Source: a virus (Duplodnaviria > Caudoviricetes). From it: 59,302 nt of DNA. A program made the position numbers and the translations under genes. Below the pieces are notes generated by a model that was not told the origin of the DNA, ran no database searches, and saw only the letters and a list, made by a program, of their open reading frames with translations. Location: IMG/VR virus record IMGVR_UViG_3300046167_000227, positions 1 through 59,302 of that record; one strand, written 5' to 3'. Positions within the stretch are counted from its first letter, which is position 1; every line of letters starts with the position of its first letter. Shown here in pieces: positions 1-59,302 of this stretch.

Positions 1-681
1 ATACATTAGCACCTCTATTAGCAACCTCATTATAGTACAAGCTAGACATTTTCTCAGCTTTCCTATCTGATTTAACTATGTTCTTAATTATTTCTGCAAC
101 ATCTACACCATCTAATTTAATGTTTGCCCATGATTTGTAACTTTTTAGATTTGTGCATAGAAATCTTGTTTAGCATTTTGTAATTCATCTATGAATGTAT
201 CTATGTTAAAATTAGATGTGTTTTTACGTCTAACCTTATCATATTCACCTCTTATCTGACCATTAGTACAAAAGAAATCTATTGCACCAAAAAACACTTG
301 ATTAGACATACTACCATCAACACCATGTAATGCTATGATACGTTCAGCAATGGTAGTTGTATGCTTATCAGTAGTTATTTTAGTAGTAACATTAGGTAAG
401 GTTATATCAGCTATTATTACTGCATTATCTTTAGCAGTAGATACCTTAACTTTAAGCATTTCTAATTCGTATGGTGTCCTATTTTCTTTTATCACATTCT
501 CTACACCATCAATAAAATTCATATGTGATGTTGTATTAAAACTTTTAACCTACTATACCTATTGGAGTATCAGTTAAAGTATTGATTACATATTTTTTGC
601 TAGGTAATCTTGTTTTTCCTCATATGCAATATCAAATTTTAAATTGTCATTTAATTGTATTAATCTATTTGTATCTAACAT
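1..681 (-). CDS. DUF932-like protein, 3'-truncated redundant copy with indels
   Basis: ORF 145..522 is near-identical to part of 55343..56191; cut by the window end. Confidence 0.75.
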
Positions 682-982
682 TATTTATTCTCCTGTTGTT
701 TATTTAATTTTTCGTATTGTGCTTTTGTTATTTTAAAATCATATTTAGTTTTATCATCTTTAGTTATTTTTTTATAAAATATAGGATTGTTTAGTAATTG
801 TTCTTTTAATGTAATTCCTGTTAATAAAAATTGTCTTTCACTAAGTTTAGGAATTGAAATTCATTTCTTAAATCGTCATCAGTTTTACATTGTCTCATAT
901 CAATTTGAAAGTTAGACAATGGCAATTCCATACTATTTATATTACCTGTTAACTTAGATTTTCTATATATTTTATGTAACAT
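681..982 (-). CDS. Hypothetical early protein, divergent allele of 56191..56448 (frameshifted)
   Basis: Shares RKSxLTGNINSMELPLS and ERQFLLTGITL with the right-hand copy. Confidence 0.65.
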
Positions 983-1009
983 CTTATATTCTCCTTTTGT
1001 TATTGTTAG

Positions 1010-1219
1010 TTATACAAGTAAAACTACATCATTATAATTTACTTGTAAAGAGTTATTTAATTTATTTTTGTCTTTTAATAATTGTCCTGTTATTGCATCT
1101 CTACTTACATAAAAGTAACCTACATTATGTGAGATAGTACCTTTTTGAGCATACCTACTTGTAGTACGTCTAAAGAAAATGTTTTTATTTCCTATTGGAT
1201 TTTTAATTATGTTTTTCAT
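1010..1219 (-). CDS. Hypothetical early protein
   Basis: 69-aa ORF with AAGGA RBS; second copy near 56480-56690. Confidence 0.55.
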   Translation of the reverse strand: MKNIIKNPIGNKNIFFRRTTSRYAQKGTISHNVGYFYVSRDAITGQLLKDKNKLNNSLQVNYNDVVLLV

Positions 1220-1446
1220 TGTATTATTCCTTTCATTTTGTTATACAATTATTTTCTATTCTTATGTTATGTCATACAACTAAAAGTATGTCAATAACTT
1301 TATTTACTTTTTTTTATTATATTCTCTTCTATATTTTTCATTACCTCCTGTTACTGCTTTCATTAATCTATACTTAGTTTCTATTTCAAATTGTCTTAAT
1401 TTACGTCTATCAATTTCTTTTAATAGTTTTAGTTTTATATTGTATT

Positions 1447-1638
1447 TCATTTTAATAAATCCTTTATATTTGTTTCATTTTCTAATTGTACATCATATCC
1501 CATTGATGCAATAGTATTTAAATTTTCTATTGACAATGTTTTAGTTTTGGCAATATCTGAAAATGATTTAGCTATTTTACATTTAGGATATATTAATTGA
1601 TTACCGTATACATTTTTTATAAATACTTGTATTTTCAT
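1447..1638 (-). CDS. Hypothetical early protein
   Basis: 63-aa ORF with AAGGA RBS; second copy near 56914-57106. Confidence 0.6.
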   Translation of the reverse strand: MKIQVFIKNVYGNQLIYPKCKIAKSFSDIAKTKTLSIENLNTIASMGYDVQLENETNIKDLLK

Positions 1639-1972
1639 TCTATTAAAATCCTTTTCTATTTAGTTATATAATTAAACTATATTATTATTTTTTAGTTAGT
1701 CAACTATTTATTTTTATTTATTTGTTTTTATTGTAGATGGATATTTTAAATTAAATTCATAAACATTGCCAATTTTATATAAACATATAGCTATTAACAT
1801 TGTTAACAAATATAATATAAAGTATTGAAATAATAAATTATTATATCTTAATTCATCTATAAAGAATATAAAACTAATTCCTAAAGTTTAAATTACATAT
1901 TACAGTTATAAAACCTAGTATATGATATTTATTCATTTTAATTGCCTTTCTATACTACTATCATGTTTTATT

Positions 1973-1998
1973 ATGGTGTGACATTTTTGCCACACCAT
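1973..1998 (-). terminator. Hairpin, probable terminator after the swappable gene (copy at about 57446-57471)
   Basis: Inverted repeat ATGGTGTG...CACACCAT just downstream of the stop codon in both terminal copies. Confidence 0.5.
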
Positions 1999-2005
1999 TT
2001 TATAT

Positions 2006-2730
2006 TTATTTAATTTATTTTGCTTTTTCAATAATTGTTTTAACATCATTAAATGTATAACAAACTAAGCAATCTTTACATTTTTGAAAACAATTTATAT
2101 TATTATCCTTATCAAAATTATTTTTATATGTTTTCATAATCATTTTTAATTTTAGTTTTCATATCTCTTGTTATTTCATTCTTATTAAAAAACATTGTAT
2201 GTTGATTATAATATTTTTTGTATGATAACTTAAGCACATTATTAAATGTTTTATCAAAATGTTTTGGTATTTTAGTTAATGGCTTATCTAATATTGGATT
2301 AGAATATATTAATATTAAATTACTAGGTTTATCATTGTTATCAAAAAACTTTTTAATAATATCAAATCTTTTAGACCATAAAGTAAAAGTAGTTTTTGGA
2401 TTTTTCTAGCTATGTTTACATAGTTTTGAATGTTATTTAAATTAATCAATTCCCCATGACTATCAAAACCTAAAATATAAATCAAATATTCTTGGCAAGT
2501 TATCCCATTCAATGATTGAGTTACTTAATAATTTACTATTCTTTTCAAGTAATGCTACCATTGATTTGCGAAAATTTAAGGTAGTAAAAGAATAACATTT
2601 ATTACATATGATATCTTTTTTATCTTTTTGTTTAATGCAATATTCATTTGTTAAAGTATTAGTAGAAATATTATTTATACTTTTCCATTTTGAAAGCACC
2701 TTTTGAAATATGTAAAGTTTGAGTATTCAT
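2006..2730 (-). CDS. Cys-motif protein, GP88-like (allele A, frameshifted)
   Basis: Fragments 2463..2699 and 2315..2512 give ICNKCYS and YFRF..SHGEL; manual reading gives LWSKR and C-terminal CFQKCKDCLVCY. Confidence 0.55.
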
Positions 2731-3719
2731 TTTGTTTTAATCCTTTTTAAAATTTAATTGTTAGTAGGTTAATTTATTTATTTGTATAAGTAAAGTTTTA
2801 TTTAATGCTATTCCTATTTTATGCATCTTTTCAATTAGTATAGATGTTTTCATTTTTTGTAATTCATCTATATTATATTTATTAAAACATTTACTTTCAA
2901 TTACTGATTGTATTTTGGATTGCCTATTAAATTATTTGTTTCAATAATATAATTTTTATAAAGTTTATTAAATCTTGTTTATTCATTTTGTTTAATCCTT
3001 TTTAATTGTTATATTGTTTAGTACTAATATTCATAAATATTAATTAATTGATTAATACTATTATTTAATTTTTTAATTTCATTATCATATTTATTATTAG
3101 TAAAACTATAACCATAAATATTTTTTAACTAAACAAATTTCATTACTATTTATTTTTTTAAACTTTTTAACTTTTAAATAATCAATTTGTTTTCAAGTTT
3201 TTCTATTCTTTTTAATAAACTATTTTTTATTATATAGTAAGTTTGTTTATTCATTGTATTAAATCCTTTTGTTGTTATTTATTTGTATAACTAAAAACAT
3301 ATATTAAAAACATTGTCAACAGGTATTATTATTTTATTTATATGTATAGCTTTAATGATAGAGGTATCAGTTTTTGTGATACATGATATCAAAAGATTAT
3401 ATAAAAGAATAACTGTTAATTAATCAGTTTAAACTATGCATATTATACTACCATATATAGCTATAAATTAAATTATTCAGTCTATATATAGCATATAAAT
3501 GTTATTTTATTTCAGATACTTAGCTATTGATGATAGAAAATGGCACTAGGCATGCGACAGGTGGGGGGTATGCGTATACGTACTCAGAGAAATACACAGA
3601 TAGGTATTTTTAAGTGTTAACCACAAGTATAACTGTCAATATACCCATTGCCTAGCACCTAATGTGTGACATAAATATCACACTAATTTAACAATCGTAC
3701 ATGAATAAATTAATTGCTA

Positions 3720-3748
3720 TTGACAAGATGTATAAAACCTGTTATAAT
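3720..3748 (+). promoter_or_regulatory. Sigma70-type promoter for the plus-strand arm
   Basis: Perfect TTGACA (3720)-N17-TATAAT (3743). Confidence 0.8.
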
Positions 3749-3763
3749 TAGCTATAACTTAAC

Positions 3764-3844
3764 CACTTAAGTGTAACACTATAATAAAACACTTAAATAA
3801 AAAGATATATACTTGTTAAATACACTTAAATGAACACTTAAGTG
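3764..3844. repeat. CACTTAA(G/A)T iterated motif
   Basis: Copies at 3764, 3790, 3823, 3835 (two are the palindrome CACTTAAGTG), plus one at 3968. Confidence 0.7.
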
Positions 3845-3891
3845 ATATTATTAGAATAAATATCCGTACATATATAAAAATACCCTTGACA

Positions 3892-4098
3892 ATGCGTAAA
3901 AAATCAGTAAAACTATATACACCAGAGAATATGTTAGAAGCATTTTACAGTGCTATCCTAAATAACACACTTAAGAGCTTACATATACCACATAGTTCCG
4001 TGTTTTATGTACGTGCTGCCATTGAAGCTGACACAGGAGTGCGATACACTCTTAAGCATGTAGAGACTGCAATGAAGGCAGAAGGAATGTTAGACTAA
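3892..4098 (+). CDS. Hypothetical protein
   Basis: First ORF of a translationally coupled (TAATG) operon. Confidence 0.6.
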   Translation: MRKKSVKLYTPENMLEAFYSAILNNTLKSLHIPHSSVFYVRAAIEADTGVRYTLKHVETAMKAEGMLD

Positions 4099-4319
4099 TG
4101 TTTGAAGCATTTGTACTTGTATGCATGATTGGTAACTCCAATATATGTCATACACTAAAAGATTTGGAAGGTCCATACGAAACTAAACAGGAATGTATAG
4201 TACGTACCTATGAAATGGCTGCTGACCTACCAGACTACATGCCTATGTTCCAAGCATTGAAGTATAAGTGCTTTGAAGATAAAGAATCAGATAAAGTGAG
4301 AATAAATTATGGCACATGA
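4098..4319 (+). CDS. Small Cys-containing protein with hydrophobic N-terminus
   Basis: MFEAFVLVC...C...GPY..KQEC...C; coupled to neighbours. Confidence 0.6.
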   Translation: MFEAFVLVCMIGNSNICHTLKDLEGPYETKQECIVRTYEMAADLPDYMPMFQALKYKCFEDKESDKVRINYGT

Positions 4320-4602
4320 AAACAGACGAGCAGCGTTGCTCAAGAAACATGGACTCAAGGGTGTGAACAAGCCTAAGAGAACCCCTGACCATAAAACTAA
4401 ATCACATATGGTGTTAGCTGCCGAAGGGCATAACATGAAACTAATTCGCTTTGGGCAACAAGGTGTCAGTGGAGCAGGTAAGAATCCCACTAGTGCTAAA
4501 GATAAAGCACGTAAGAAGAGTTATTATGCAAGGCACAATGCTCAAGGCAAACCCACCACTAAGTTATCAGCTAAATACTGGTCACATAAGGTGAAGTGGT
4601 AA
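4309..4602 (+). CDS. Basic hypothetical phage protein
   Basis: RFGQQG...ARKKSYYARH...YWS motif typical of marine phage hypotheticals. Confidence 0.7.
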   Translation: MAHENRRAALLKKHGLKGVNKPKRTPDHKTKSHMVLAAEGHNMKLIRFGQQGVSGAGKNPTSAKDKARKKSYYARHNAQGKPTTKLSAKYWSHKVKW

Positions 4603-4617
4603 CAGGAGAATAGATAA

Positions 4618-5106
4618 ATGAGTGCGAAGAAGATAGCAGACTTTATATTTGAGAATACTGGTAAAGGTGTAAATTATGCCATGAGAAAATTAGGCATAGC
4701 TAAAAGTGAGATAGACGGATTAACACCTAACCAACTTAAATTATATCTTGCAGAAAAGGCAAAGGGTTCTTACAAAGGTAGAACAAAAGCTAGAGATTCG
4801 GATACAGGAAAATTAGTAGTAGGTGGTGGTACATTAGCTACCCTAGCTTCTATATGGAATGAAATTGACCCAACTAAAGTAAAAAGGATGGGAGATGGAA
4901 CATTACGTGCTGAAAATTTAAAGAAGAAAAAGAAGATGGTTAAGAAAAAGGTAGTAAAGAAAACTCCACCTAAAGCTCCACCACCTAAACCTGATTCAGT
5001 TAAGAAGAAAAAGAAACAGCTTATGATGAAAGAGAAGTATACAGGTAAGGACTCAAATGTAAAGTTTAACTCTAGGGGTGGTATGCTCAAGAAGGGGAAG
5101 AAGTAA
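4618..5106 (+). CDS. Lysine-rich protein
   Basis: AGGAG RBS; K/P-rich; ends FNSRGGMLKKGKK. Confidence 0.75.
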   Translation: MSAKKIADFIFENTGKGVNYAMRKLGIAKSEIDGLTPNQLKLYLAEKAKGSYKGRTKARDSDTGKLVVGGGTLATLASIWNEIDPTKVKRMGDGTLRAENLKKKKKMVKKKVVKKTPPKAPPPKPDSVKKKKKQLMMKEKYTGKDSNVKFNSRGGMLKKGKK

Positions 5107-5432
5107 TGGCTGAGAATCCACTAGCAAGAATAAAAGCTAAATTAATAGCTAAATATGGTAAAGACAAAGGTATGGATGTATACAGGTCTGCAAGTAAAGA
5201 TATAAGCAATCAGATTGCAGGTGGTGGTGGAGAGATTGAAGGGTCTTCTCTAACACAACTAATGGACCCAGCAGACCAAGTAGAGTTTTATGAATATAAG
5301 TCTGACTTAGCAAAAGGTAAAAACATAGATACGTCAGCTACCAAGAACAGAAAAGGTGCTAACGACTACCGTAAGGGTGGCTACGTGCTCAACACGACTG
5401 ACAATAGAAAGGTCAAGAGAAATGGCAAATAA
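5106..5432 (+). CDS. Hypothetical protein with YRKGG motif
   Basis: TAATG-coupled ORF. Confidence 0.75.
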   Translation: MAENPLARIKAKLIAKYGKDKGMDVYRSASKDISNQIAGGGGEIEGSSLTQLMDPADQVEFYEYKSDLAKGKNIDTSATKNRKGANDYRKGGYVLNTTDNRKVKRNGK

Positions 5433-5643
5433 AAAAGGTAAGGGTGGCATAGCCATAATCATTTCTATGTTAGGTAAGAAACCTAAAGGTAAAATGAAAA
5501 AAGCTGAAATGTCATATGGTGGCAGTGTAGGTGGTAAGAAGCATATGTACTCAGGTGGTGGTTCAGTCACAGATAATGCAGGTTTACTTGCTCTCAAGAA
5601 GGCTAGTCCTGAAGCCTACATGAACATAAAGAAAAATGCCTAG
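5422..5643 (+). CDS. Small basic protein with MSYGG / YSGGG motifs
   Basis: ATG at 5422 (MANKKGK) within ORF 5356..5643. Confidence 0.7.
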   Translation: MANKKGKGGIAIIISMLGKKPKGKMKKAEMSYGGSVGGKKHMYSGGGSVTDNAGLLALKKASPEAYMNIKKNA

Positions 5644-5896
5644 TAGAAATTATAAAAAAGAATATGCTAACTACCACTCTAAACCTGCACAGAAGGTGAA
5701 CAGAGCAGGTAGAAACAAAGCACGTAAGATAGTTATGAAAGCAGGTGGAACTGCGAAGGTAGCAGGTAAAGATGTCCACCATAAGAATGGCAATCCAAAG
5801 GATAACAGAACTAGTAATTTAGCTGTAGCATCTAAAACTGCCAATCGTTCTTTCAAGAGAACACGTACTGCTAAAAAACTTACTAGGAGAATATAA
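5636..5896 (+). CDS. HNH endonuclease-like protein
   Basis: DVHHKNGNPKDNRTSNL motif. Confidence 0.7.
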   Translation: MPSRNYKKEYANYHSKPAQKVNRAGRNKARKIVMKAGGTAKVAGKDVHHKNGNPKDNRTSNLAVASKTANRSFKRTRTAKKLTRRI

Positions 5897-6555
5897 TGGC
5901 AAAAGAGTACACAGTCAAGATTTTTGGGAAAACAAGAGACTACAAAAAAGTAGGTAATAAGTATTTTCAAATTATGAAAGATGGAAAATTAAATAAAAAT
6001 TCTGCAAGTGGAGCTTGGAGATTGCAACTAGAAAATGCTGCAAACTCTAGATTAGTTACTACCCCTAAAAAGGTGGCTACTTCAATGTTAGCTAGTGTAA
6101 GGTCTGCTGTGTCTAGTTCAAAGAAAAACAAAAGAGGTCAGGCACAAGCATCTACACCTAAAGATGATGGTGGTAGGGCTGCCTATTTGCGAAGTGAAAT
6201 TATAGACAAACTAAAAAAAGATAAGGCACTAGCTACTATAAAAAAAGATACTAGTAACACAAAAACAGATAGAAAAATATCTATGGGTAATAAAAAAACG
6301 GACAAGAAAATAGAGAAAAAGGTAGAAAAGAAAAAAGATATTAAACCTTTACAAAAAACACAGAGTAAGGCAATAAAATCTACTACAACAAAAGCTCTAC
6401 AGAATAAACCTAAACAAAATGTTAAAAAGAAAGTAGAGAAGAAGATTACAAAGAAGCCTGAATCTAAATTGGATTCAAAAGGTAACTATAAAGGCACAAA
6501 CATAAAGCCTACAAAGTTACAATTAGACAGACTAAAGAAAAGAGGACTAGCATAA
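5896..6555 (+). CDS. Lysine-rich protein
   Basis: 219-aa coupled ORF, very K-rich C-terminal half. Confidence 0.75.
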   Translation: MAKEYTVKIFGKTRDYKKVGNKYFQIMKDGKLNKNSASGAWRLQLENAANSRLVTTPKKVATSMLASVRSAVSSSKKNKRGQAQASTPKDDGGRAAYLRSEIIDKLKKDKALATIKKDTSNTKTDRKISMGNKKTDKKIEKKVEKKKDIKPLQKTQSKAIKSTTTKALQNKPKQNVKKKVEKKITKKPESKLDSKGNYKGTNIKPTKLQLDRLKKRGLA

Positions 6556-6686
6556 TGGTTATGAAGAAGAAAACAAAGTACATGGCTAAAGGTGGAATGA
6601 AGAAGACTAAATACATGGCTAAAGGTGGTGCAGGTATGAAGAAGACTAAGATGTACTCTCGTGGTGGAGCAGCTAAAAAGAAGTAA
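6555..6686 (+). CDS. 43-aa tandem-repeat basic peptide (not in ORF track)
   Basis: MVMKKKTKYMAKGGMKKTKYMAKGGAGMKKTKMYSRGGAAKKK; TAATG-coupled at both ends, AGGA RBS. Confidence 0.8.
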   Translation: MVMKKKTKYMAKGGMKKTKYMAKGGAGMKKTKMYSRGGAAKKK

Positions 6687-7390
6687 TGTCATATCTTATA
6701 AGTAACGTACCACATTTTAAATGTTGGGTACGTAAGGAGTTCACTTGTAATCATATGAATTATCACGGTGAATACCTACACGCACTAGCTTTCGCAGTTA
6801 ATACCATACCTGATAGGTCACTAAGTTTTCAGGTAGTCTTCACAGGTTGTACAGAAGATGACAATGTACACGGTGGTGCAATGTGGGCAAGGATGCCCAT
6901 ACAGGCACTCGTAGCTGACATACCTGTAGACGAATGGGCAGAGCCAATGGAAGACCACTTATGTCAACCTTGGGATTGTGAATCAAGAAACCATAGTGTT
7001 ATAGTTATGGACAGAGTCAGTTCTAGTCCGTGGTTATGTAAGATAGGCAATGAGTTCTACACAGCTAAGTATATGTTTACTGTTGACTACACAGACAGTG
7101 ACATAGCAGATGACCCTGCACAGCATAAGCAGTCACACGTGATGTACTTGTTGGATGCAGGAAAATGGACAGGCAATATAGTTGCACTGCCAAATAACAG
7201 AGTAAGAGCTACAAGTCCTGCTCTGTGGGTTACAGGAGAAGGTGCTCCAGACTTTGCACCATCACAGTGGACACACTCAGCAGAGTCACACGAATCTTAC
7301 CTAGACCCATTTACTACATTTAACAATTTATATGAGGATAGAGATGGCACTAGCAAAGGCAAAAAGAACAATAAAAAAAGTAGCAAGTAA
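6686..7390 (+). CDS. Conserved hypothetical phage protein
   Basis: 234-aa globular ORF with QPWDC, HKQSH and LPNNR motifs. Confidence 0.75.
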   Translation: MSYLISNVPHFKCWVRKEFTCNHMNYHGEYLHALAFAVNTIPDRSLSFQVVFTGCTEDDNVHGGAMWARMPIQALVADIPVDEWAEPMEDHLCQPWDCESRNHSVIVMDRVSSSPWLCKIGNEFYTAKYMFTVDYTDSDIADDPAQHKQSHVMYLLDAGKWTGNIVALPNNRVRATSPALWVTGEGAPDFAPSQWTHSAESHESYLDPFTTFNNLYEDRDGTSKGKKNNKKSSK

Positions 7391-8208: not shown

Positions 8209-8651
8209 TGTTAGCAGAACTCGCAGCAGCCAATGCAGCCTTCGGTGTAATCAAGAGTTTTATATCTAATGGTAAGGAACTTTCAGGTTGTGCTAAACAA
8301 ATATCAGATTTTGTATTTTCTAAAGAAGCCATAGAGAAAAATCTTAAAAAGAAAAAAGCTAAAGGTATAGGTGGTGGAGACTTAGAAGAGTTCATGGCTC
8401 TTGAGCAGATAAGAGAAAAAGAAGAAGAACTCAAGAAGATGATGATATATCTAGGCAGACCCGGATTGTGGCAGGATTGGCAACAGTTCCAAGCAGAAGC
8501 AAGAAAGTCTAGACGTTATCAAGAAAAGATGGCAGAGAAGCGTAGAGAAGAGATAATGGAATACGTAGGCTATAGTATAGGGTTTATTGTCATTGTATTC
8601 TTTGCAGGACTAGCAGCTTGGTTTGTAGCTAAGTGGACAGGTAGATTATAA
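8208..8651 (+). CDS. Coiled-coil protein with C-terminal TM helix
   Basis: Hydrophobic C-terminal segment; lies near lysis genes. Confidence 0.7.
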   Translation: MLAELAAANAAFGVIKSFISNGKELSGCAKQISDFVFSKEAIEKNLKKKKAKGIGGGDLEEFMALEQIREKEEELKKMMIYLGRPGLWQDWQQFQAEARKSRRYQEKMAEKRREEIMEYVGYSIGFIVIVFFAGLAAWFVAKWTGRL

Positions 8652-8732
8652 CCCCATGTATAGGCATCTGCACGTTGCAAGAGAATGTCTGCATAGGATG
8701 CAATAGAACAATAGAAGAGATTAAGGAAGCGT

Positions 8733-8978
8733 ATGAGAGCACCACAAAAGTCACTAGCAAATTGGACAAAGCAAAAGTGGAGAACCAAGAGTGGTAAACC
8801 TAGTACACAGGGGTCAAAAGCTACAGGCGAACGTTATCTACCTGAAGCGGCGATTAAGGCTCTTAGTTCCAGTGAATACGCCGCCACTTCGGCTGCTAAA
8901 CGCAAAGCAACTAGAGGAAATAGACAAGTATCTAAACAACCCAAAAAGATTGCTAGAAAAACGGCGAGATTTAGATGA
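8733..8978 (+). CDS. Basic protein with DUF5872-like C-terminal half
   Basis: QKSLANWTKQKWRT...ERYLP...LSSSEYAAT. Confidence 0.65.
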   Translation: MRAPQKSLANWTKQKWRTKSGKPSTQGSKATGERYLPEAAIKALSSSEYAATSAAKRKATRGNRQVSKQPKKIARKTARFR

Positions 8979-9100
8979 GAAAAGACGAATTGTACTTAAA
9001 CTTGGCGAAGCCGCTGCTGAAGCTAGGAAACTATCTCTTCAACAAGCACGTGAAAGCTCTAAGAAGAAGACAAGAAAAAGAAGGCACTAGGAGACTATAA
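8975..9100 (+). CDS. 41-aa hypothetical protein
   Basis: MRKDELYLNLAKPLL...; ATGA and TAATG coupling to neighbours. Confidence 0.5.
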   Translation: MRKDELYLNLAKPLLKLGNYLFNKHVKALRRRQEKEGTRRL

Positions 9101-9243
9101 TGGACAACATGATATTAGATGCATGGAATGAACTTAGTTACGTTGAAGGTGTGTTATTCACAGTATGGTTATTTATCTTGTACTATGGTAAGTGTTGGAT
9201 AGATTCAAAGTTTAATAAAGAAACTTGTAATTGTATAAGATGA
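9100..9243 (+). CDS. 47-aa membrane peptide
   Basis: AGGAG RBS; one hydrophobic helix. Confidence 0.55.
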   Translation: MDNMILDAWNELSYVEGVLFTVWLFILYYGKCWIDSKFNKETCNCIR

Positions 9244-10298: not shown

Positions 10299-10660
10299 TG
10301 AGTAGAGAACTAACTGAAAGACAACAAAAGTTTCTATCTGTTTTATTTGATGAAGCAGGTGGAGATGTAGTAGCAGCTAAAAAGTTGGCAGGTTATGCTG
10401 AAACATCCAGCACAACAGAGATAGTGAAATCCATGAAGGATGAGATACTAGAAGCTACGCAGTTGTTTATGAGTAGGAACGCACCTAAAGCTGCAATGGC
10501 TATGGTGGGTGGTTTATATGACCCTACTGAGTTAGGTCTCAAAGATAAGATGATGGCAGCTAAAGAATTACTAGACAGGACAGGCTTAGTGAAGACTGAG
10601 AAAATGCAAGTAGAAAGCACTGGTGGTGTTATGCTATTACCTGCAAAGAACGATGGATAG
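10298..10660 (+). CDS. terS: Terminase small subunit (probable)
   Basis: LTERQQKF...AAKKLAGY HTH pattern and LLDRTG; upstream of terL. Confidence 0.65.
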   Translation: MSRELTERQQKFLSVLFDEAGGDVVAAKKLAGYAETSSTTEIVKSMKDEILEATQLFMSRNAPKAAMAMVGGLYDPTELGLKDKMMAAKELLDRTGLVKTEKMQVESTGGVMLLPAKNDG

Positions 10661-11054
10661 AAGTGTAGGTAAGTGGAAGTTACCACAACCAACAGACTTA
10701 AAAGATGAAGAACAAAAAGAATGGGTACAGATACCTCGCATAGCTAGGACTATTCCATTTGGATACAAGATAAATGAACAAGACCCTGACTTACTTGACC
10801 CAATACCATACGAGTTAGAAGCCATAGAGATGGCAAGAAAGTATGTAAAGCAGTATTCCTATCGTGAAGTAGCTAATTGGATGACTACTAAAACGAATAG
10901 AGTTATATCTCACGTGGGTTTAAGAAAAAGGTTAATGCATGAAAGACAACGTAAGAACACGGCTAGAACTCTCAGAAAGTGGTCTGAGTACGCCGAAAAG
11001 GCGATACAAAAAGCGAAAGCCATTGAAGAAGCAAGAACAGGTGCAAGAGCCTAA
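10653..11054 (+). CDS. Putative DNA-binding protein
   Basis: IPFGY...SYREVANW...ISHVGL resembles a recombinase-type DNA-binding domain. Confidence 0.55.
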   Translation: MDRSVGKWKLPQPTDLKDEEQKEWVQIPRIARTIPFGYKINEQDPDLLDPIPYELEAIEMARKYVKQYSYREVANWMTTKTNRVISHVGLRKRLMHERQRKNTARTLRKWSEYAEKAIQKAKAIEEARTGARA

Positions 11055-12493
11055 GATACGAGAAGTATCAGACGTAGAAGCAGTACCTGTAGAAGAACAG
11101 AATGTTATCTTCAAACCTAATGTAGGACCTCAGACAGAGTTCCTTGCAGCAGGTGAAAGAGAAGTATTATATGGTGGTTCAGCAGGAGGTGGTAAATCAT
11201 ACGCCATGCTTGCCGACCCTTTACGTTACATGGGTCATCCATCATTTAGTGGGTTGCTACTGCGACACACAACAGAAGAACTTAGAGAACTAATATTTAA
11301 ATCTAAGGAAATGTATCCTCAAATATGGAAGGGTATTAAGTGGTCAGAAAGAAAGATGCAATGGGAAGCACCATCAGGTGCAAGGTTATGGATGTCATAC
11401 CTAGACAGAGACGATGATGTACTTCGTTATCAAGGTTTGGCATTTAGTTGGATAGGGTTTGATGAATTAACTCAGTGGTCTACTCCGTATGCTTGGAACT
11501 ATATGCGTTCACGTTTGCGTTCTACTGCACATGATTTACCTGTGTATATGAGAGCAACAACTAACCCCGGAGGTCCGGGACATCATTGGGTCAAGAAAAT
11601 GTTCATTGACCCTGCACCATACGGAAAACAATTTGATGCCACAGATATTGAATCAGGGAATGTTCTTTCCTATCCAAAAGGACACAGTAAAGCAGGACAA
11701 GCATTATTCAAACGTAGATTTATCCCTGCAAGATTATCGGACAACCCATACTTGTCTGCCCAAGGTGACTATGAAGCAATGCTTCTATCCTTACCTGAAC
11801 ACCAACGTAAGCAGTTGCTTGAAGGTGATTGGGATATTAAAGAAGGTGCTGCTTTTACTGAGTTTGATAGGAATATTCACGTTGTTGAGCCTTTTTCAAT
11901 TCCAAGAAATTGGGTTAAATTTCGTGCATGTGATTATGGTTATGGCTCTTATAGTGGTGTGTTGTGGTTTGCTGTTTCTCCAGACGAGCAGATTATTATA
12001 TATAGAGAGTTGTATTGTAGCAAAGTACTTGCCACAGATTTGGCAGATATGATATTGGATGCTGAAGCCGATGATGGAAATATTAAGTATGGGGTTCTGG
12101 ACAGTTCTCTTTGGCATAAACGTGGGGATACTGGTCCTTCTTTGGCTGAACAGATGATTATGAAGGGATGCCGATTTAGACCTTCAGATAGAAGTAAAGG
12201 CAGTCGTGTATCAGGGAAAGAATGAAATACATAGACGTTTACAAGTAGACGAGTTTACAGAAGAACCAAGATTAGTTTTCTTTAACACTTGTACTAATAT
12301 GGTATCACAATTACCTGCATTACCGTTAGATAAGAAGAATCCAGAAGATGTAGACACAAGAGCAGAAGACCACTTGTATGATGCATTAAGATATGGTATA
12401 ATGTCAAGACCTAGGTTTAGTATATTTGACTACGACCCAATGGGTAGACCTAGTAACAGTATGCCAATGGCAGACTCTACATTTGGATATTAA
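11041..12493 (+). CDS. terL: Terminase large subunit (one indel near 12220)
   Basis: Walker A GGSAGGGKS, Walker B FDEL, TNPGG, nuclease DYGY and DHLYDALRY across ORFs 10939..12225 and 12206..12493; start uncertain. Confidence 0.92.
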
Positions 12494-45477: not shown

Positions 45478-47481
45478 GCCAATTATTACCTATTTTTGCT
45501 TCTAATAATAATGGAACATTGAACTCTAATGCAAACTCACTATTAATTAAATTAATCATTTTACTATTGACTATTTTAATAACATGAATCACTTTTTGTA
45601 TCTCTTCAGGATGTATGTCTATGACTATAGAATCATGCACACTGTTTACAATACAAGACTTTAAGTTTACTAATTCATTCTCTATGTTTATTAGTATAAG
45701 AGGAACTATATCAGCAGTAGCAAACGACTGAACAGGATAGTTCTTTATCTGTGTAAAGTGAGACACCTTACCATAAGAGTTTCTTCTAACGTCAGGGAAT
45801 GAGAACTGTCTACCTGATGGTGTAGTTATCTTTCTAGTACTTATAACTTCTTTAGCCAATTTGGAGTGCCATAATGCGATTCCTTCGTACTTTTCCGTGA
45901 AGTGTTTATAATATGTAGCCTGAGCAGGTGTCCTTCCAAACCCTGTTGCTCCATATAGTGGTGCAAAGGTATGAGCCTTTGCTTCTTGGCGAGATGTCTT
46001 CTCACCTGCATCACTAATAACACTAGCAGTATAACTATGAACGTCAAAACCATCGCAACCTCCTCAATAGCGACTTTATCTTGTGATAAATATGCCGCAG
46101 CTCTAAACTCAAGTTGTGCAAAATCTGCCTCCAATATCTTTCCATTATCCCAACGTGATACAAACACTTTCTTCACAGGAAACGTACCACCTCTAGGCAT
46201 GTTCTGCATGTTAGGGTCTGCACCACTAAACCTACCAGTAGATGTTCTATGTTGTAACAATCTTACATGTAACTTACCATCAGGTTTTACGTATGTCTTT
46301 ATGCCTTGTACAAAGGATGACAAGTAAGTATCTAATGCAGACAGTCTTTGTAAGTCTGATAAGAAACTCATTGCCTCTGACATATTTAATTTCTTAGCAC
46401 CATCATGTAATATATCAAGAAACTTTTTATTAACACTAAAACCATTTGCACTTACCCATTTAGCTGATGGTGCAGAGAACTTTAATCCTGCTATCTTGTT
46501 GCTATTAGTAAAAGTGTAGCCAGTACCAGTGCAAGTATTACATTTGGGTTGCTTAACATAAGGGTTTCCATCTTTTCTAACCTTTCTCATTGAACCTGAT
46601 CCATAACAATCCTTACATTTTACAGCTATAGTTTTGTACACTATATCTGATGTCTCGCTAACTACTTCTTTGTAATTAGATGTCTTCATGTATGAATCAA
46701 AGTTGTGTGTCCAAGTAGTTTTATCTTTAGGCTTTCTACTATATATAACCCAAGACATCTGCTCTGGACTATTTAAGTTGATAGGTGTGTCACCCATTAA
46801 GTTTTTAACTTGAATCTTTAGACGTTTCTCTATGTCTTGTTTCTCTGTCTCAAACTCAACTCTAACTTCCTCAAGCTTATTTAAATCTACTGCAAATCCT
46901 TTTTGATATATGTTTGCTAGTGTTAAAGCAACCTTGTTAGTTAGTATAACTGTATCCATCAACTCGCTATATTCAACCGTATTTAGTTTTCTATATATTT
47001 CATCAGATAACTGCTGTGTTGCATGTAAGTCAGCAGACAAGTACTCAGATAATTCTTCAGGTGGTATGTCAGCAACTGAAAAACCTTTCTTGAAGTATTC
47101 TTTTAAGGTATCTTGTTTCTGTGTAGCTAACTCATATCTCTCAGCACATGCCTCAAGAGACAATGCTTTTTTGACACCACGTTGTAGGACATACTCACCT
47201 AACATAGTATCAAACACAGGACCTGTATAGGTTAGACCACATTCCCATATCCACATCAAGTCGTGTACTATGTTATGTCCAATAAGTATTGTACAAGCAT
47301 CTAGTAACTCTTGTATCTTCTGATGTGCATCTGTGTCTGTTGACATTCTAAACAGATATTCTTCTTTTGTGTCTGTTAAACACCCAACCATAATCAACTC
47401 ATTATCTGTTTCAAATGGATCAAGGTGTAACTTACCATCTCTAGTTGTGACTGTATTCTCTACGTCAAGTGTCAGTTTCAT
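45455..47481 (-). CDS. polA: Family A DNA polymerase with DnaJ-like zinc-finger insert (one indel near 46055)
   Basis: Exo DVE and GHN..HD; CKDCYGSG..CNTCTGTG; TGRFS..PNMQN; ADFAQLEFR; RQEAKAHTF (shifted frame); VHDS. Confidence 0.93.
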
Positions 47482-53005: not shown

Positions 53006-53221
53006 CTATACAGTCTCCTCTCCATTCTCACTCATTATAAATAAGAACCCACCACTATTGCCCTCAGGGTCAGAACTTACTGCTATCTTAACATCTTCAT
53101 ACTTAGGTTTAGTTAGTATAAACTCAGGGAATCCTTCTGCATCTATGCCTAAGAATTTCTTTATCTTGAATCCTTCTAACTGCTTGTAGTATCTGTCTTT
53201 AAATTCTCCCATTATACACAC
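53006..53221 (-). CDS. Hypothetical protein
   Basis: DPEGNSGGFL motif. Confidence 0.6.
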   Translation of the reverse strand: MCIMGEFKDRYYKQLEGFKIKKFLGIDAEGFPEFILTKPKYEDVKIAVSSDPEGNSGGFLFIMSENGEETV

Positions 53222-53454
53222 TCCCTTTTAAATACTGTGTTCCAAGTCTCTTCAATCTCATCATCAAGATTTTCATCCTCAATAAATTCTAGTTGGTTTT
53301 GTACATATAGAATACGACATTGTTCAAGTGTCCACTTATCTGTAAGTTCTTCATCAAAGAATAATACAGGTTGGAGTTCTTCCTTGCTCATATTTAATGC
53401 TTGGTAATATAATATATTAACCAATGCTTTTTTATATCGTGTCTCGTTTGTCAT
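53212..53454 (-). CDS. Hypothetical protein
   Basis: 80-aa coupled ORF. Confidence 0.55.
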   Translation of the reverse strand: MTNETRYKKALVNILYYQALNMSKEELQPVLFFDEELTDKWTLEQCRILYVQNQLEFIEDENLDDEIEETWNTVFKRECV

Positions 53455-54473
53455 ACTAACTCCTTGTTGTTGTTATACATTTCATGCCATGTGTCATCTA
53501 ACTGTATACCCTTGAGTATATGTGCAATCACATCAACTGTCCACCCATTACCAATCATCTTGTATCGCTGACTATTTGATACATGATTGGTGTAGTTGTC
53601 AGGTAGCGTTTGTAAGCGTTCGCATTCTAAGCAACTTAATTTTCTCCACATATCTTTTGATACTGCAACCTTTGGTTCTCTGTGTCCACCTTGCATGGTA
53701 GTAAGAGTAGGTGCTTTGCCTTCTTGTGCATACACTCGCTTGATAGAGTCATGCCCTTTAAGGTCAGCAGTACCAACCCTAATCAATCCATCTTTAGACA
53801 TGGTAGGGTTATCTTTCAGTACCATAGTACGTTGTTTTCTTTCAATGCTATTCCACCATACTGCACCATTATATCTAGCAGTAAGACAATGAGATTTACC
53901 ATCAGCATTAGTCATCTCTTCAGTAGCATAACCATCTTCTAATATGTCTTGCATAACTATTCCTTTATCAATCATATCAGCAATACGTATTTGCTCATAC
54001 TTACCATTGACTAGTACACCAAACCAATACAACCTATATCTATTTTGTGCAGATAGTTTACTAGAATTTAATGCTTGACATTCAAATCCCATGTATTCTG
54101 ATATAACATCTTGAGATTGTTTAGACATTCTAACATTCTCTAACAGTATATACTTAGGTTTTAGTTCATCTCTTAATCTAATAAACTCAAAGAATAATTT
54201 ACTACGTTCATCATTAAAGTTTAATTGTTTTCCTGCAAATGAAAATCCTTGACATGGACTACCTCCCATTAGGATATCAACATCATGATTGAAACTACTA
54301 GCATCAACTTTAGTTACATCTCCTATTGGTATTGCATCAGGAAAGTTAGCATCCATTACTATGTTAGCATACTTATCTATCTCAGAATAATAATACTTAG
54401 TTATAGGTATATTTGCTTTTATACTAGCTAACATACCACCACCATATCCATTAAAAATACTAGCTATTACCAT
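53451..54473 (-). CDS. C5-cytosine DNA methyltransferase
   Basis: F.G.GG, GSPCQGFS, ENV, QNR.R, ERLQT, GNGW. Confidence 0.92.
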   Translation of the reverse strand: MVIASIFNGYGGGMLASIKANIPITKYYYSEIDKYANIVMDANFPDAIPIGDVTKVDASSFNHDVDILMGGSPCQGFSFAGKQLNFNDERSKLFFEFIRLRDELKPKYILLENVRMSKQSQDVISEYMGFECQALNSSKLSAQNRYRLYWFGVLVNGKYEQIRIADMIDKGIVMQDILEDGYATEEMTNADGKSHCLTARYNGAVWWNSIERKQRTMVLKDNPTMSKDGLIRVGTADLKGHDSIKRVYAQEGKAPTLTTMQGGHREPKVAVSKDMWRKLSCLECERLQTLPDNYTNHVSNSQRYKMIGNGWTVDVIAHILKGIQLDDTWHEMYNNNKELV

Positions 54474-54578
54474 TGTCTTTATCTCCTATTGGTATTTCTT
54501 CGTTAGGTAAAAATTGTTTCTCTATCTCATTCATCGTATCTTCAAATAAGTTATATAACTCTTCTTCATCCATGTCAA

Positions 54579-55083
54579 CTACTCCTTGTAATATTTTTCT
54601 AATCTGTCATACAAGTAGTCTAAGCTATCTTGATTAGCTTGGTATAGTATACCTATCCCACCTTTATCAATCCATTTCTGAATGTTCTTAGGCTTGTCAT
54701 CAATTAAGATGTTACCTTTAGTGTATGCTCTATTAACTGCATACTTTTCTTTCCTACCCTGTAAAGATAGCATCACTTGGATTATAGTTATGTTTATCTA
54801 ACCAATGTCTTTTCCAAAATGCTGAGTTCTTATTGTCATATCTTAATGGAGATGAAAGTATAATCCATTCTCCTTTAGTTAGTTTATCTATATGACTAAT
54901 CAGCTTATCACTTGTTTCAAACTTAGGTATTGTTCCAAAGAAATCAGTACCTTTTAATTCTGATATTGATTGTGCTATGTTTATGTCTTTCCAATGTTGT
55001 ACACCATACTTTATTTCTAATGCTTTAAAGAAATCAGCTATAACACCATCCATGTCTACATAAACTTTTCTTTTAACTGTCAT
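54579..55083 (-). CDS. 5'(3')-deoxyribonucleotidase, HAD family (frameshifted)
   Basis: DMDGVIADF, ILSSP, K..W and LIDD across two ORFs. Confidence 0.85.
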
Positions 55084-55276
55084 TGTTCTTTTCCTTTTCT
55101 TTTAATAATCTTTGGTCTAACTTATCCATTAATTGTTTTGTTTCTTCATACAACTTTCTATCGTATTCATCTTCATCTTTATCTCCAACAAAACTTTCTT
55201 GTATATGTAATTCTGAATCCAAGCTATCTACAAGAATATCTAATTCATTTAATGTTAATTCTAATTTAATTGTCAT
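55073..55276 (-). CDS. Hypothetical protein
   Basis: AAGGA RBS; acidic 67 aa. Confidence 0.6.
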   Translation of the reverse strand: MTIKLELTLNELDILVDSLDSELHIQESFVGDKDEDEYDRKLYEETKQLMDKLDQRLLKEKEKNNDS

Positions 55277-55300
55277 TTTATTTTCCTTTCATTTAGTTAT

Positions 55301-55335
55301 ACAAGTAGACTATCCCATTATAATCTACTTGTCAA
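55301..55335 (-). promoter_or_regulatory. Promoter overlapped by an inverted repeat
   Basis: TTGACA-N17-TAGTCT; ACAAGTAGA-N14-TCTACTTGT. Confidence 0.55.
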
Positions 55336-55342
55336 GTGTTAG

Positions 55343-56191
55343 TTATGCAACTAATTCAAGTTTCTTAAACTCATTAGATGATATCCATTTGCTTACCTCT
55401 TGTTCTCTATTCCACATAGATAAACTTTCAGTATCATTGCCCATATTCTTTAGGCTAAATCCATTTCTTTCATCAGCATAGCTAGAGTAGTTAGTAAATG
55501 CTGAGTATAAAGAGAATACATTAGCACCTCTATTAGCAACCTCATTATAGTACAAGCTAGACATTTTCTCAGCTTTCCTATCTGATTTAACTATGTTCTT
55601 AATGATTTCTGCGACATCTACACCATCTAATTTAATGTTTGCCCATGATTGTAACTTTTTAGATTGTGCATAGAAATCTTGTTTAGCATTTTGTAATTCA
55701 TCTATGAATGTATCTATGTTAAAATTAGATGTATTCTTACGTCTAACTTTATCATATTCACCTCTTATCTGACCATTAGTACAAAAGAAATCTATTGCAC
55801 CAAAAAATACTTGATTAGACATACTACCATCAACTCCATGTAATGCTATGATACGTTCAGCAATGGTAGTTGTATGCTTATCAGTAGTTATTTTAGTAGT
55901 AACATTAGGTAAGGTTATATCAGCTATTATTACTGCATTATCTTTAGCAGTAGATACCTTAACTTTAGCATTTTCTAATTCGTGAGATGTTCTATTTTCT
56001 TTTATAACATTCTCTACACCATCAATGAAATTCATATGAGATGTTGTATTAAAACTTTTACCTACTATACCTATTGGAGTATCAGTTAAAGTATTGATTA
56101 CATATTTCTTGCTAGGTAATCTTGTCTTTTCATATGCAATATCAAATTTTAAATTGTCATTTAATTGTATTAATCTATTTGTATCTAACAT
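55343..56191 (-). CDS. DUF932-family protein
   Basis: HGVDGS, FFCTNG, SLYSAFTNY. Confidence 0.7.
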   Translation of the reverse strand: MLDTNRLIQLNDNLKFDIAYEKTRLPSKKYVINTLTDTPIGIVGKSFNTTSHMNFIDGVENVIKENRTSHELENAKVKVSTAKDNAVIIADITLPNVTTKITTDKHTTTIAERIIALHGVDGSMSNQVFFGAIDFFCTNGQIRGEYDKVRRKNTSNFNIDTFIDELQNAKQDFYAQSKKLQSWANIKLDGVDVAEIIKNIVKSDRKAEKMSSLYYNEVANRGANVFSLYSAFTNYSSYADERNGFSLKNMGNDTESLSMWNREQEVSKWISSNEFKKLELVA

Positions 56192-56448
56192 TATTTATTC
56201 TCCTGTTGTTTATTTAATTTTCTATTGTGTATATCTTCGTCTAATGTAATTCCTGTTAATAAAAATTGCCTTTCACTAAAGTTTAGGAATTGAAATTCAC
56301 TTCTTAAATCTATATTTGGATTATCATTAATTCTATTTATATCTACAAATGACAATGGTAATTCCATACTATTTATATTACCTGTTAAATCAGATTTTCT
56401 AGATATCATATTAAATTTATGTAACTTATGTTTTTTTAATGTAAGCAT
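56191..56448 (-). CDS. Hypothetical early protein (allele B)
   Basis: S.LTG....ME...ERQFLLTGIT motif. Confidence 0.7.
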   Translation of the reverse strand: MLTLKKHKLHKFNMISRKSDLTGNINSMELPLSFVDINRINDNPNIDLRSEFQFLNFSERQFLLTGITLDEDIHNRKLNKQQENK

Positions 56449-57478
56449 TTTGTATTCTCCTTTTGTTATTGGTTAGTTATATAAGTAAACTACACCATTA
56501 TAATTTACTTGTAAAGAGTTATTTAATTTATTTTTGTCTTTTAATAAATTGTCCTGTTACTGCACATCTACTAACATAAAAGTAACCTACGTTATGGGAA
56601 ATTGTACCTTTTTGAGCATACCTACTTGTAGTACGTCTAAAGAAAATGTTTTTATTTCCTATTGGATTTTTAATTATGTTTTTCATTGTATTATCCTTTC
56701 ATTTTGTTATACAATTATTTTCTATTCTTATGTTATGTCATACAACTAAAAGTATGTCAATAACTTTATTTACTTTTTTTTATTATATTCACGTCTATAT
56801 TTTTCATTACCTCCTGTTACTGCTTTCATTAATCTATATTTAGTTTCTATTTCAAATTGTCTTAATTTACGTCTATCAATTTCTTTTAATAGTTTTAGTT
56901 TTATATTGTATTTCATTTTAATAATTCCTTTATATCTACTTCATTTTCTAATTGTACATCATATCCCATTGATGTAATAGTATTTAAAGTTTCTATTGAC
57001 AATGTTTTAGTTTTGGCAATATCTGAAAATGATTTAGCTATTTTACATTTAGGATATATTAACTTGATTACCGTATACATTTTTTATAAATACTTGTATT
57101 TTCATTCTATTATTTCCTTTTCTATTTAGTTATATAATTAAAGTATATTATTATTTTTAGTTAGTCAATTAATTATTTTTATTTATTTGTTTTTATTGTA
57201 GATGGATATTTTACTATTAAACTCTTTAACTTTCAGCCTATTTTATGTAAACATATAGCTATTAAACATTGTTAACAAATATAATAAGAAATAGTGTAAC
57301 ATTAAATTATTATATCTTTAATATCGTCTAATATAGAATATTAAACTAATTCCTAAAGTTAAATTACATATTACAGTTATATAACACTAGTATATGATAT
57401 ACTATTCATTTTAATTGCCTTTCTATACTACTATCATGTTTTATTATGGTGTGACATTTTTGCCACACCATTTTATAT

Positions 57479-58500
57479 TTATTTGTTTAAACTTGCTATC
57501 TTTACAAATCCACTTAATATTGCTTTATTTAATTCAATTAATCTTTTATCCTTTTTATCCTTAGCTTTATATTTAAATCTTAATCCAATTATACATTGTT
57601 CTTTATGTTGTGGTAAGTAATCGTGTAAATCTCCGTCAATAACTTTAAATATTTTGTTATTAACTTTATATGTTTTAGGTAAATCTTTATTTCTTTTTGT
57701 ATCAAATACCATAGCTAAACTTAAACCATTATTAATAGCTATTTTAGTTTTATTAGTATCATTATCACTTACTGAATAAACAAACTTATAATCTTTATTA
57801 GCTATTCTATTAAAGTTTTTAGTATAATCATAATTTTTTAATATAATATCTTTATCATTATCTATTTTAGTTTGTTGTATTATTTCATTAGCTATATTAG
57901 AAAATGTATTTACTTTATTATTATAAACAATATTAATATTTTCATATTCAATATCACTTGAAATATTAAAACGTATAGATAATAAAAGACTATTTCTTAA
58001 ACAGTAATTAGCTTTTAATTGTATATATCTAATATACATAGCTAAAAATAACATAGGATTATTTAATAATAACTTTTTACGTTTTAACATAGCTTTTTGT
58101 TTAGCATCTATATAAGCAGGATTGCCACTATAAAAGATAACGCAATTACTTTTACAAGATGTTGTTGCATTGTTACAAACTGTTGTAATAACTTTATCTA
58201 ATCCATTATAATTTAAATAATCTAATATATCTTTATGATAATCATTATTATTAAAATCTTTTATTAATTCGTATGGTGCAATAGCAATACCTATTGAATA
58301 CATATTTAATTCTTTTAAGTTTTTAGCTAGTTTAGTTTGTGATTTGCTTTCACTTAAAAACGTAGTAAATCCATAATCCTTACATACGTTTTTTTAATTG
58401 GTTTAAATTCATATCTAAAACTTTAATGTTAATTATAAGTAACATTATCTAAGTTAAAAGTTTTACTAGTTAAATATTTATTTATATCTAATTTAATCAT
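57479..58500 (-). CDS. GP88-like protein (allele B; N-terminus frameshifted)
   Basis: TKLAKN, CNNATTSCKSNC, RFNISSDI, YDYTK, DGDLHD, IGLRFK. Confidence 0.65.
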
Positions 58501-58566
58501 TTTGTTTAATCCTTTTTAAAATTTAATTGTTAATAGGTTAATTTATTTATTTGTATAAGTAAAGTT

Positions 58567-58758
58567 TTATTTTAATGCTATTCCTATTTTATGCATCTTT
58601 TCAATTAGTATAGATGTTTTCATTTTTTGTAATTCATCTATATTATATTTATTAAAACATTTACTTTCAATTACTGATTGTATTTTTGGATTGCCTATTA
58701 AATTATTTGTTTCAATAATATAATTTTTTATAAAGTTTATTAAATCTTGTTTATTCAT
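58567..58758 (-). CDS. Hypothetical early protein (copy at about 2797-2986)
   Basis: 63 aa with AAGGA RBS. Confidence 0.55.
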   Translation of the reverse strand: MNKQDLINFIKNYIIETNNLIGNPKIQSVIESKCFNKYNIDELQKMKTSILIEKMHKIGIALK

Positions 58759-59302
58759 TTTGTTTAATCCTTTTTAATTGTTATATTGTTTAGTACTAAT
58801 ATCATAAATATTAATTAATTGATTAATACTATTATTTAATTTTTTAATTTCATTATCATATTTATTATTAGTAAAAACTATAACCATAAATATTTTTAAC
58901 TAAACAAATTTCATTACTATTTATTTTTTTAAACTTTTTAACTTTTAAATAATCAATTTGTTTTTCAAGTTTTTCTATTCTTTTTAATAAACTATTTTTT
59001 ATTATATAGTAAGTTTGTTTATTCATTGTATTAAATCCTTTTGTTGTTATTTATTTGTATAACTAAAACATATATTAAAAACATTGTCAACAGGTATTAT
59101 TATTTTATTTATATGTATAACTTTATGATATAGGTATCAGTTTTTGTGATACATGATATCAAAAGATTATATTAAAGATAACTGTTAATAAATCAGTTTT
59201 AAACTATTCATATTAACTACCATATATAGCTATAAATTAAATTATTCAGTCTATATATAGCATATAAATGTTATTTTATTTCAGATACTTAGCTATTGAT
59301 GA

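Follow-up and report, generated by a model that had tools for sequence, protein, structure and literature searches.

Two GP88-family alleles of one early-gene slot at the ends of an HMO-2011-type marine phage contig, probably joined by assembly of co-occurring strains

Terminal-redundancy heterozygotes are known from classical genetics in T4 and other circularly permuted, terminally redundant phages, and terminal repeats that hold early genes are found in T5 and SPO1. In T4-type phages, module shuffling in hyperplastic regions is mediated by promoter/stem-loop regulatory cassettes. The locus analyzed here resembles the T4 heterozygotes in that two alleles of one locus lie at both ends of a linear map longer than one unit. 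It differs from them because the T4 alleles were shown in one particle, whereas here the positions of the contig ends relative to the variants point to an assembly join. The locus also resembles T4-type cassette shuffling, as a gene-sized replacement lies between short conserved regulatory sequences that recur among neighbouring small early genes. In place of a promoter/stem-loop cassette, however, its flanks share only a ribosome-binding-site/start 22-mer and a hairpin, and recombination there is our reading of the pattern. A third comparison is with wrap-around contigs of mixed strains, which likewise exceed one unit, overlap imperfectly at their ends, differ by strain variants in the overlap, and end about one word length outside the outermost variant. 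Unlike those contigs, ours has a long overlap (3.5-3.8 kb) that includes a whole-gene replacement, and it carries homopolymer indels, which are rare in pure short-read assemblies.

The stretch of DNA analyzed (the window) is the whole of IMG/VR record IMGVR_UViG_3300046167_000227, 59,302 bp in length, which is classed as linear and rated 100% complete. The contig is an HMO-2011-type marine podophage. It encodes a major head protein, a terminase, a ribonucleotide reductase, a DnaB-like helicase, a primase and a DNA polymerase of family A. This last enzyme shares 62.8% identity with its counterpart in Puniceispirillum phage HMO-2011, with CRP-series roseophages as the next matches. The non-redundant unit is 55,515 bp (~55.5 kb) and the HMO-2011 genome is 55,282 bp; the 59,302-bp contig therefore covers about 1.07 units. 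Genome size, DNA polymerase, helicase, primase, ribonucleotide reductase and an early region with GP88 and DUF932 genes are all shared with the HMO-2011 group. The HMO-2011 record is circular as deposited, and its early region contains a GP88 gene (gp01, E 2.5e-43), an L5 gp82-like gene and a DUF932 gene (gp08). By contrast, the early region of the window is far lower in GC, and its GP88 genes belong to subtypes other than the canonical one represented by gp01.

The co-occurrence of GP88, the L5 gp82-like gene and DUF932 in HMO-2011 (L091, HMO-2011 1-5400) involves gene names that come from mycobacteriophage L5 (GP88 and gp82), and this early gene set is common to very distant phages. Elsewhere in the window, residues 286-322 of the DNA polymerase (gene 45841-47481, minus strand) match the small zinc-finger-like family phrog_6060, and the HMO-2011 polymerase gene is annotated with a DnaJ CXXCXGXG (PF00684) segment. 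In the large terminase region (10623-12225, plus strand), a pair of ORFs, 10623-11054 and 10939-12225, overlap in different frames. The terminase pieces of a related IMG/VR genome, G001, have the same frame offset; instead of an error, the arrangement may therefore reflect either a conserved frameshift or two separate genes. Near-identity searches with both contig ends in a phage collection gave no match.

To describe the repeated ends, we compared them by BLASTN. Window positions 1-3533 recur at 55516-59302, and the repeat reaches both base 1 and base 59302. The match is divided into three blocks: 1-721 with 55516-56229 (96.5% identity), 801-2011 with 56236-57484 (90.5%), and 2724-3533 with 58494-59302 (97.5%). 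Between the last two blocks, 712 bp on the left (2012-2723) and 1009 bp on the right (57485-58493) remained unmatched. A preliminary description of this DNA had placed a slot of about 715 and 1010 bp, free of similarity, between the start and stop codons of one gene at each end, and both the sizes and the break points were borne out. The two genes lie on the minus strand and start with ATG at 2730 and 58500, respectively. The right gene ends with a stop codon at 57479-57481. The stop codon of the left gene, at 2015-2017, is followed in frame by another TAA (2006-2008), which is the homologue of the right stop codon.

Outside the slot, the two copies differ at 207 columns, and global alignment revealed 91 substitutions and 47 indel events. 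Most of these separate 1-2011 from 55516-57484 (84 substitutions and 34 indel events, 26 of which are 1 nt long and 17 of which are homopolymer changes), while 2724-3533 and 58494-59302 differ by seven substitutions and 13 one-nucleotide indels, 12 of them in homopolymers. The first part of the left copy (1-2011) contains the truncated, frameshifted 5' part of a DUF932 gene together with small minus-strand early genes, and the second (2724-3533) contains the ribosome-binding site and start of the slot gene and the small genes upstream of it. Their counterparts at the right end are 55516-57484, which begins within a DUF932 gene (55343-56191, minus strand; DUF932 E 1.8e-07), and 58494-59302, which ends in 87 bases identical to 3447-3533. 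With its small minus-strand genes and a GC content of 21-23%, the repeated block forms a low-GC compartment; elsewhere in the contig, GC is 33-41%. The block's right boundary coincides with the switch between leftward and rightward genes, and its left boundary falls inside the DUF932 gene.

The sequences that flank the slot on either side are conserved. In both slot genes the ATG is preceded by the same AGGA site. The ribosome-binding-site/start 22-mer TTAAAAAGGATTAAACAAAATG has three exact occurrences in the window, against 0.01 expected by chance: before the right slot gene (58498-58519), before the next gene upstream (58756-58777), and at 2984-3005, the left copy of the latter, all on the minus strand. 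Downstream, both slot genes are followed by a shared hairpin with an 11-bp stem (-16.4 kcal/mol), located on the minus strand at 1973-1998 (z -4.96) for the left gene and at 57446-57471 (z -5.36) for the right gene. The earlier observation that both genes keep the same ribosome-binding site and downstream hairpin is thus correct, with the qualification that the left slot gene's version of the 22-mer has one extra A. The hairpin has no following U run and is not a canonical terminator; an exact scan for it in viral contigs gave no match. That an identical 22-nt start sequence precedes two neighbouring early genes is an observation in its own right, and this sequence might be a possible linker for cassette exchange.

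Intact relatives were available for each allele. The left allele (2012-2723, minus strand), a short-subtype GP88-family gene broken by 1-nt homopolymer indels in the window, is 89.3% identical at the DNA level to an intact 237-aa ORF in contig L016 (L016:3749-4459). The right allele (57485-58493, minus strand), a long-subtype GP88-family gene that carries two 1-nt frameshifts close to the 5' end, shares 97.1% identity with an intact 336-aa ORF in contigs L006 (L006:4896-5903) and L008, 89.9% with its counterpart in L007, and 76.8% with that in L053. Scored against Pfam GP88 (PF17338; curated cut-off, 24.4 bits), the intact short ORF of L016 reached 33.4 bits and the intact long ORF of L006 reached 38.6 bits, in agreement with the preliminary description, which had called both slot genes distant GP88-like Cys proteins; the Cys motifs named there are present in both alleles. 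The open part of the right allele in the window itself scored 41.5 bits (E 1.8e-10) and also matched phrog_1617. The pieces of the left allele in the window stayed below the Pfam GP88 cut-off (best, 13.7 bits, E 0.058) because of the frameshifts.

Further comparisons gave the same assignment. Among the homologues listed, 116 of 120 for the short allele and 26 of 27 for the long allele carry PF17338 as a precomputed annotation, and both alleles fall into GP88 clusters in a language-model atlas. In a tblastn search with the long allele, 214 of 217 matches were mycobacteriophage records, with 24-26% identity among the 25 records listed. Direct comparison of the short and long alleles gave no significant match (BLASTP E 1.1; hhalign probability 0.3%), so it is solely the Pfam model that places them in a common family. 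Judged by these profile scores, the slot appears to hold two very distant members of one family. Both slot genes, read from their intact relatives, pass the cut-off of the mycobacteriophage L5 gp88 family, but within PF17338 they differ from each other in Cys spacing and in a second, C-terminal Cys cluster that the short allele has. We found no mention of PF17338 in the literature searched.

We obtained AlphaFold models of both alleles, with a pLDDT of 90.7 for the long allele and 77.6 for the short allele. Foldseek searches with both models gave no match at E <= 0.001. In a wide structural search, the top match of both was spore photoproduct lyase (4fhc_A), a radical SAM enzyme, at Z 6.2 for the long-allele model (rmsd 6.2, 197 aligned) and Z 4.6 for the short-allele model, both under the caution level of Z 8. 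The first 20 rows of structural matches to the long allele were all radical SAM enzymes, every one with Z < 8. A separate profile search with the long allele, run against solved structures, returned a chance match only (E 0.63). Three conserved N-terminal Cys residues occur at the matching place, with the spacing Cx6Cx3C in the long allele, Cx10Cx2C in the short allele and Cx7Cx3C in HMO-2011 gp01. The radical SAM motif CxxxCxxC after the first strand is absent from all three; some radical SAM enzymes have variant Cys spacings. Towards the C terminus, the short subtype and DUF7227 also share a Cys cluster, CxxCxxC, with one more Cys ahead of it at a distance that varies. GP88 could tentatively be taken as an Fe-S enzyme built on a partial barrel, a lead that we regard as slightly less than an even bet.

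Both slot genes are frameshifted in the window, a feature that the preliminary description had not mentioned, with at least four shifts in the left gene and two in the right. All in-gene indels relative to the intact relatives are 1 nt long, and six of the eight alter the length of a single-base run. For the left 6 kb of the window, we compared the record with contigs from four of the 24 public runs listed, all of which are in contig form. Contigs from all four cover the left allele almost letter for letter, with 4-5 gaps; for example, a 766-nt run contig over 1982-2750 shows four other letters and five gaps relative to the window. Over 4389-5438, the run contigs show no differences and no gaps. 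The frameshifts in both slot genes are thus most likely consensus errors of the record, as judged from these comparisons, and not pseudogenes. We rejected true pseudogenes because the near-identical contigs of the four runs differ mainly by 4-5 gaps and the ORFs of relatives are intact, and a reassigned genetic code because the breaks are changes of frame, not in-frame stops. The homopolymer indels suggest an error-prone, possibly long-read, platform.

A similar break was seen outside the repeat. The gene for an NT5C-like 5' nucleotidase (54579-55083, minus strand) is split into ORFs of 109 aa and 65 aa where a G run at about 54759, in unique sequence, is one G too long, likely a consensus error; the gene is intact (172 aa) in L006 at 8589-9107. 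Errors are therefore enriched in the low-GC ends rather than confined to the repeat.

The preliminary description had also proposed that the slot is exchangeable, a view upheld by our finding that each allele exists intact, at the same position, in independent contigs from other samples. It further called for a survey of what relatives carry there, and upstream of DUF932 we found short GP88, long GP88 or other families. In close relatives, the slot lies 1.2-1.6 kb upstream of DUF932 and holds either short GP88 (L016) or long GP88 (L006, L008, L007 and L053). In the next clade, whose DUF932 is 82% identical, the interval is occupied instead by a 156-aa ORF and a DUF7178 gene. A scan of 29 large ORFs upstream of DUF932 in relatives, in which positional equivalence is loose for the more distant ones, yielded further GP88 subtypes (5 of 29), DUF7227 (6, plus one below the cut-off), DUF7178 (2), C5 cytosine methylase (5) and ORFs of no family (10). 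One of these ORFs has a match to GP88 and a weak one to DUF7227, which makes a relationship between the two families probable.

Contig L006 is a natural recombinant. It carries the right allele, yet its positions 6511-7370, equivalent to window 1662 to ~800 on the left and 57128-56236 on the right, are closer to the left copy (93.7%, from a match spanning 1662-1) than to the right copy (89.7%). The haplotype polymorphism is real. It comprises scattered changes, patchy divergence in two stretches, and the exchange of one GP88-family gene, cleanly from start to stop, for a very distant member of that family. The replacement would have arisen by inter-strain recombination in the conserved flanks, that is, in the upstream ribosome-binding-site/start cassette and the downstream hairpin. 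Swapping of GP88 subtypes between conserved flanks, as in this low-GC, hypervariable early region, is ordinary, familiar phage mosaicism.

How the two alleles came to lie in one record is a separate matter. We consider it highly probable that the two ends are haplotypes of two co-occurring strains that were joined by assembly, and rather likely that the join is the wrap-around of a closed map. The contig would have overrun the ~55.5-kb unit (about 1.07 times), leaving the low-GC early-gene region present twice; each pass of that region would come from a different co-occurring strain haplotype, the two being merged into one sequence by the assembly. The positions of the contig ends are consistent with this course of events. 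At the contig start, 88 bases are identical before the first inter-copy difference (base 89), and at the contig end, 87 bases are identical after the last one, while differences are otherwise spaced 20-40 bases apart. Stretches of at least 88 identical bases lie ahead of just 98 of the 3533 positions (2.8%). Given how the variants are spaced here, the probability of at least 87 identical bases at both ends was estimated post hoc at about 0.001, a figure that must be discounted because the pattern was spotted after looking. As a test of whether the ends are physical termini placed independently of the variants, the 88 and 87 clean bases came out against that possibility. Such clean ends are expected of a word- or overlap-based assembler, not of physical DNA ends. 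The path of the assembler would leave the shared backbone on the branch of one strain and re-enter it from that of the other.

A comparable case was found in G001 (55,909 bp; an HMO-2011-type IMG/VR record, classed linear, CheckV 100%), whose ends overlap by 285 nt at 94% identity (L093 1-285 and L094 5716-6000). This overlap has 72 and 77 identical bases at its extremes, and its 17 substitutions are mostly 3 nt apart or separated by multiples of three. It maps to the equivalent of window ~10.3-10.5 kb, a map position other than that of the window's repeat, and it looks like a strain bubble that was traversed twice.

Relatives carry one copy of the region per unit: the contig of L006 has the early region once, with the right allele, joining the equivalents of window 3309-7340 and 53029-56229, and G001 has one DUF932 match in its 55,909 bp. 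Short-read assembly would collapse a real repeat too, so the L006 contig shows only that the map closes; for the same reason, the relatives cannot settle the boundaries of the repeat. A closed map is also in keeping with the length of the unit (55,515 bp, against 55,282 bp in HMO-2011). The two haplotypes exist separately: L016 and contigs from all four runs have the left allele together with its flanks, and four other contigs (L006, L007, L008 and L053) have the right allele. Related strains also co-occur, as three samples each contain two or three different contigs.

Some observations stand against an assembly join. The homopolymer indels fit an error-prone or long-read platform that could yield whole-virion reads, and a homopolymer frameshift is also present at ~54759, in unique sequence. 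The clean ends differ by one base (88 versus 87), the word size that they imply (88-89) is not a common default, and the probabilities attached to them were calculated post hoc. A word size near 89, as well as homopolymer errors in fragmented regions, might come from an older multi-k short-read pipeline with overlap merging. Fixed direct terminal repeats are, moreover, reported in relatives: according to a nanopore study of marine viromes, such repeats occur in the genomes with terminases nearest to that of Puniceispirillum phage (88% AAI), and repeats in the set of that study range from 32 to 4829 bp. A real repeat of the size seen here would therefore not be absurd. In the available text of the literature on HMO-2011-type phages (including PMC9038755, by text search), no mention of termini, permutation, circularity or GP88 was found.

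These reports lend some weight to a variant of the join in which an early-gene terminal repeat of ~3.5-3.8 kb is real and the consensus of its two ends was built from the reads of two strains. We regard this as unlikely, though the best of the alternatives. The repeated block coincides with the low-GC early region, its right boundary falls at the switch between leftward and rightward genes, and the error profile of the record fits, as do the fixed repeats reported for relatives. The left boundary within DUF932, the clean ends of 88 and 87 bases, and the deposition of HMO-2011 as a circular record without a repeat argue against it. A consensus from two strains' reads over a real repeat would give the same picture without any heterozygous particle.

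The preliminary description had favoured a single DNA molecule that carries both alleles, and this part of it was not supported; the chimeric assembly of two strains, which it had named as the alternative, is the reading preferred here. As a true terminal-repeat heterozygote, one virion genome would bear short GP88 on the left and long GP88 on the right, having been packaged from a recombinant or mixed concatemer after co-infection. The repeat does cover both ends exactly, and it amounts to 6.8% of the unit, inside the known range for headful or long fixed repeats. The indel-error profile is compatible with a polished long read, and both alleles, together with recombinants, are in circulation; the fixed repeats reported for relatives of Puniceispirillum phage, in a study whose repeats reach 4829 bp, would also accommodate it. 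Against these points, the ends extend 88 and 87 identical bases beyond the outermost variants in a region where differences elsewhere occur every 20-40 bases, and the tips of a long read, which should be its worst-polished parts, are here the cleanest. The left end truncates the DUF932 gene, and under headful packaging, the 285-nt overlap of G001 at the same unit length misfits a repeat of 3.8 kb. Co-infection is expected to be rare and chimeric joins of strains are common, which we also counted against a heterozygote. Given the clean ends, the cut DUF932 gene, the overlap of G001 and the co-occurrence of strains, a heterozygous virion genome is very improbable. We accordingly give little credence to the record being a faithful copy of virion DNA with a ~3.8-kb early-gene terminal repeat and two GP88 alleles acquired after natural co-infection.

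A true diverged duplication, with two paralogous early regions in a single 59-kb genome, would explain why one record holds two diverged copies, but it is the least credible reading, as the copies lie exactly at both contig ends, relatives have one copy (the contig of L006 spans the region once, and G001 has one DUF932 match) and the 55.5-kb unit matches the 55.3 kb of HMO-2011.

Under the assembly join of two co-occurring strains, the finding is mainly an assembly artefact that displays ordinary, real polymorphism. Contigs that overrun a circular map by way of a second strain's haplotype can pass as complete linear genomes; the present record, classed as linear with a completeness of 100%, is 3.8 kb too long. 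A true heterozygote would show directly that marine phages co-infect and recombine in the wild, capturing both co-infection and cassette exchange on a single molecule in a phage group that ranks among the most abundant in the ocean. As an assembly join, the record places next to one another two alleles that occupy a hypervariable early-gene slot of HMO-2011-type phages. The GP88 family that occupies the slot may, as a lead, be an Fe-S enzyme with a radical-SAM-like fold.
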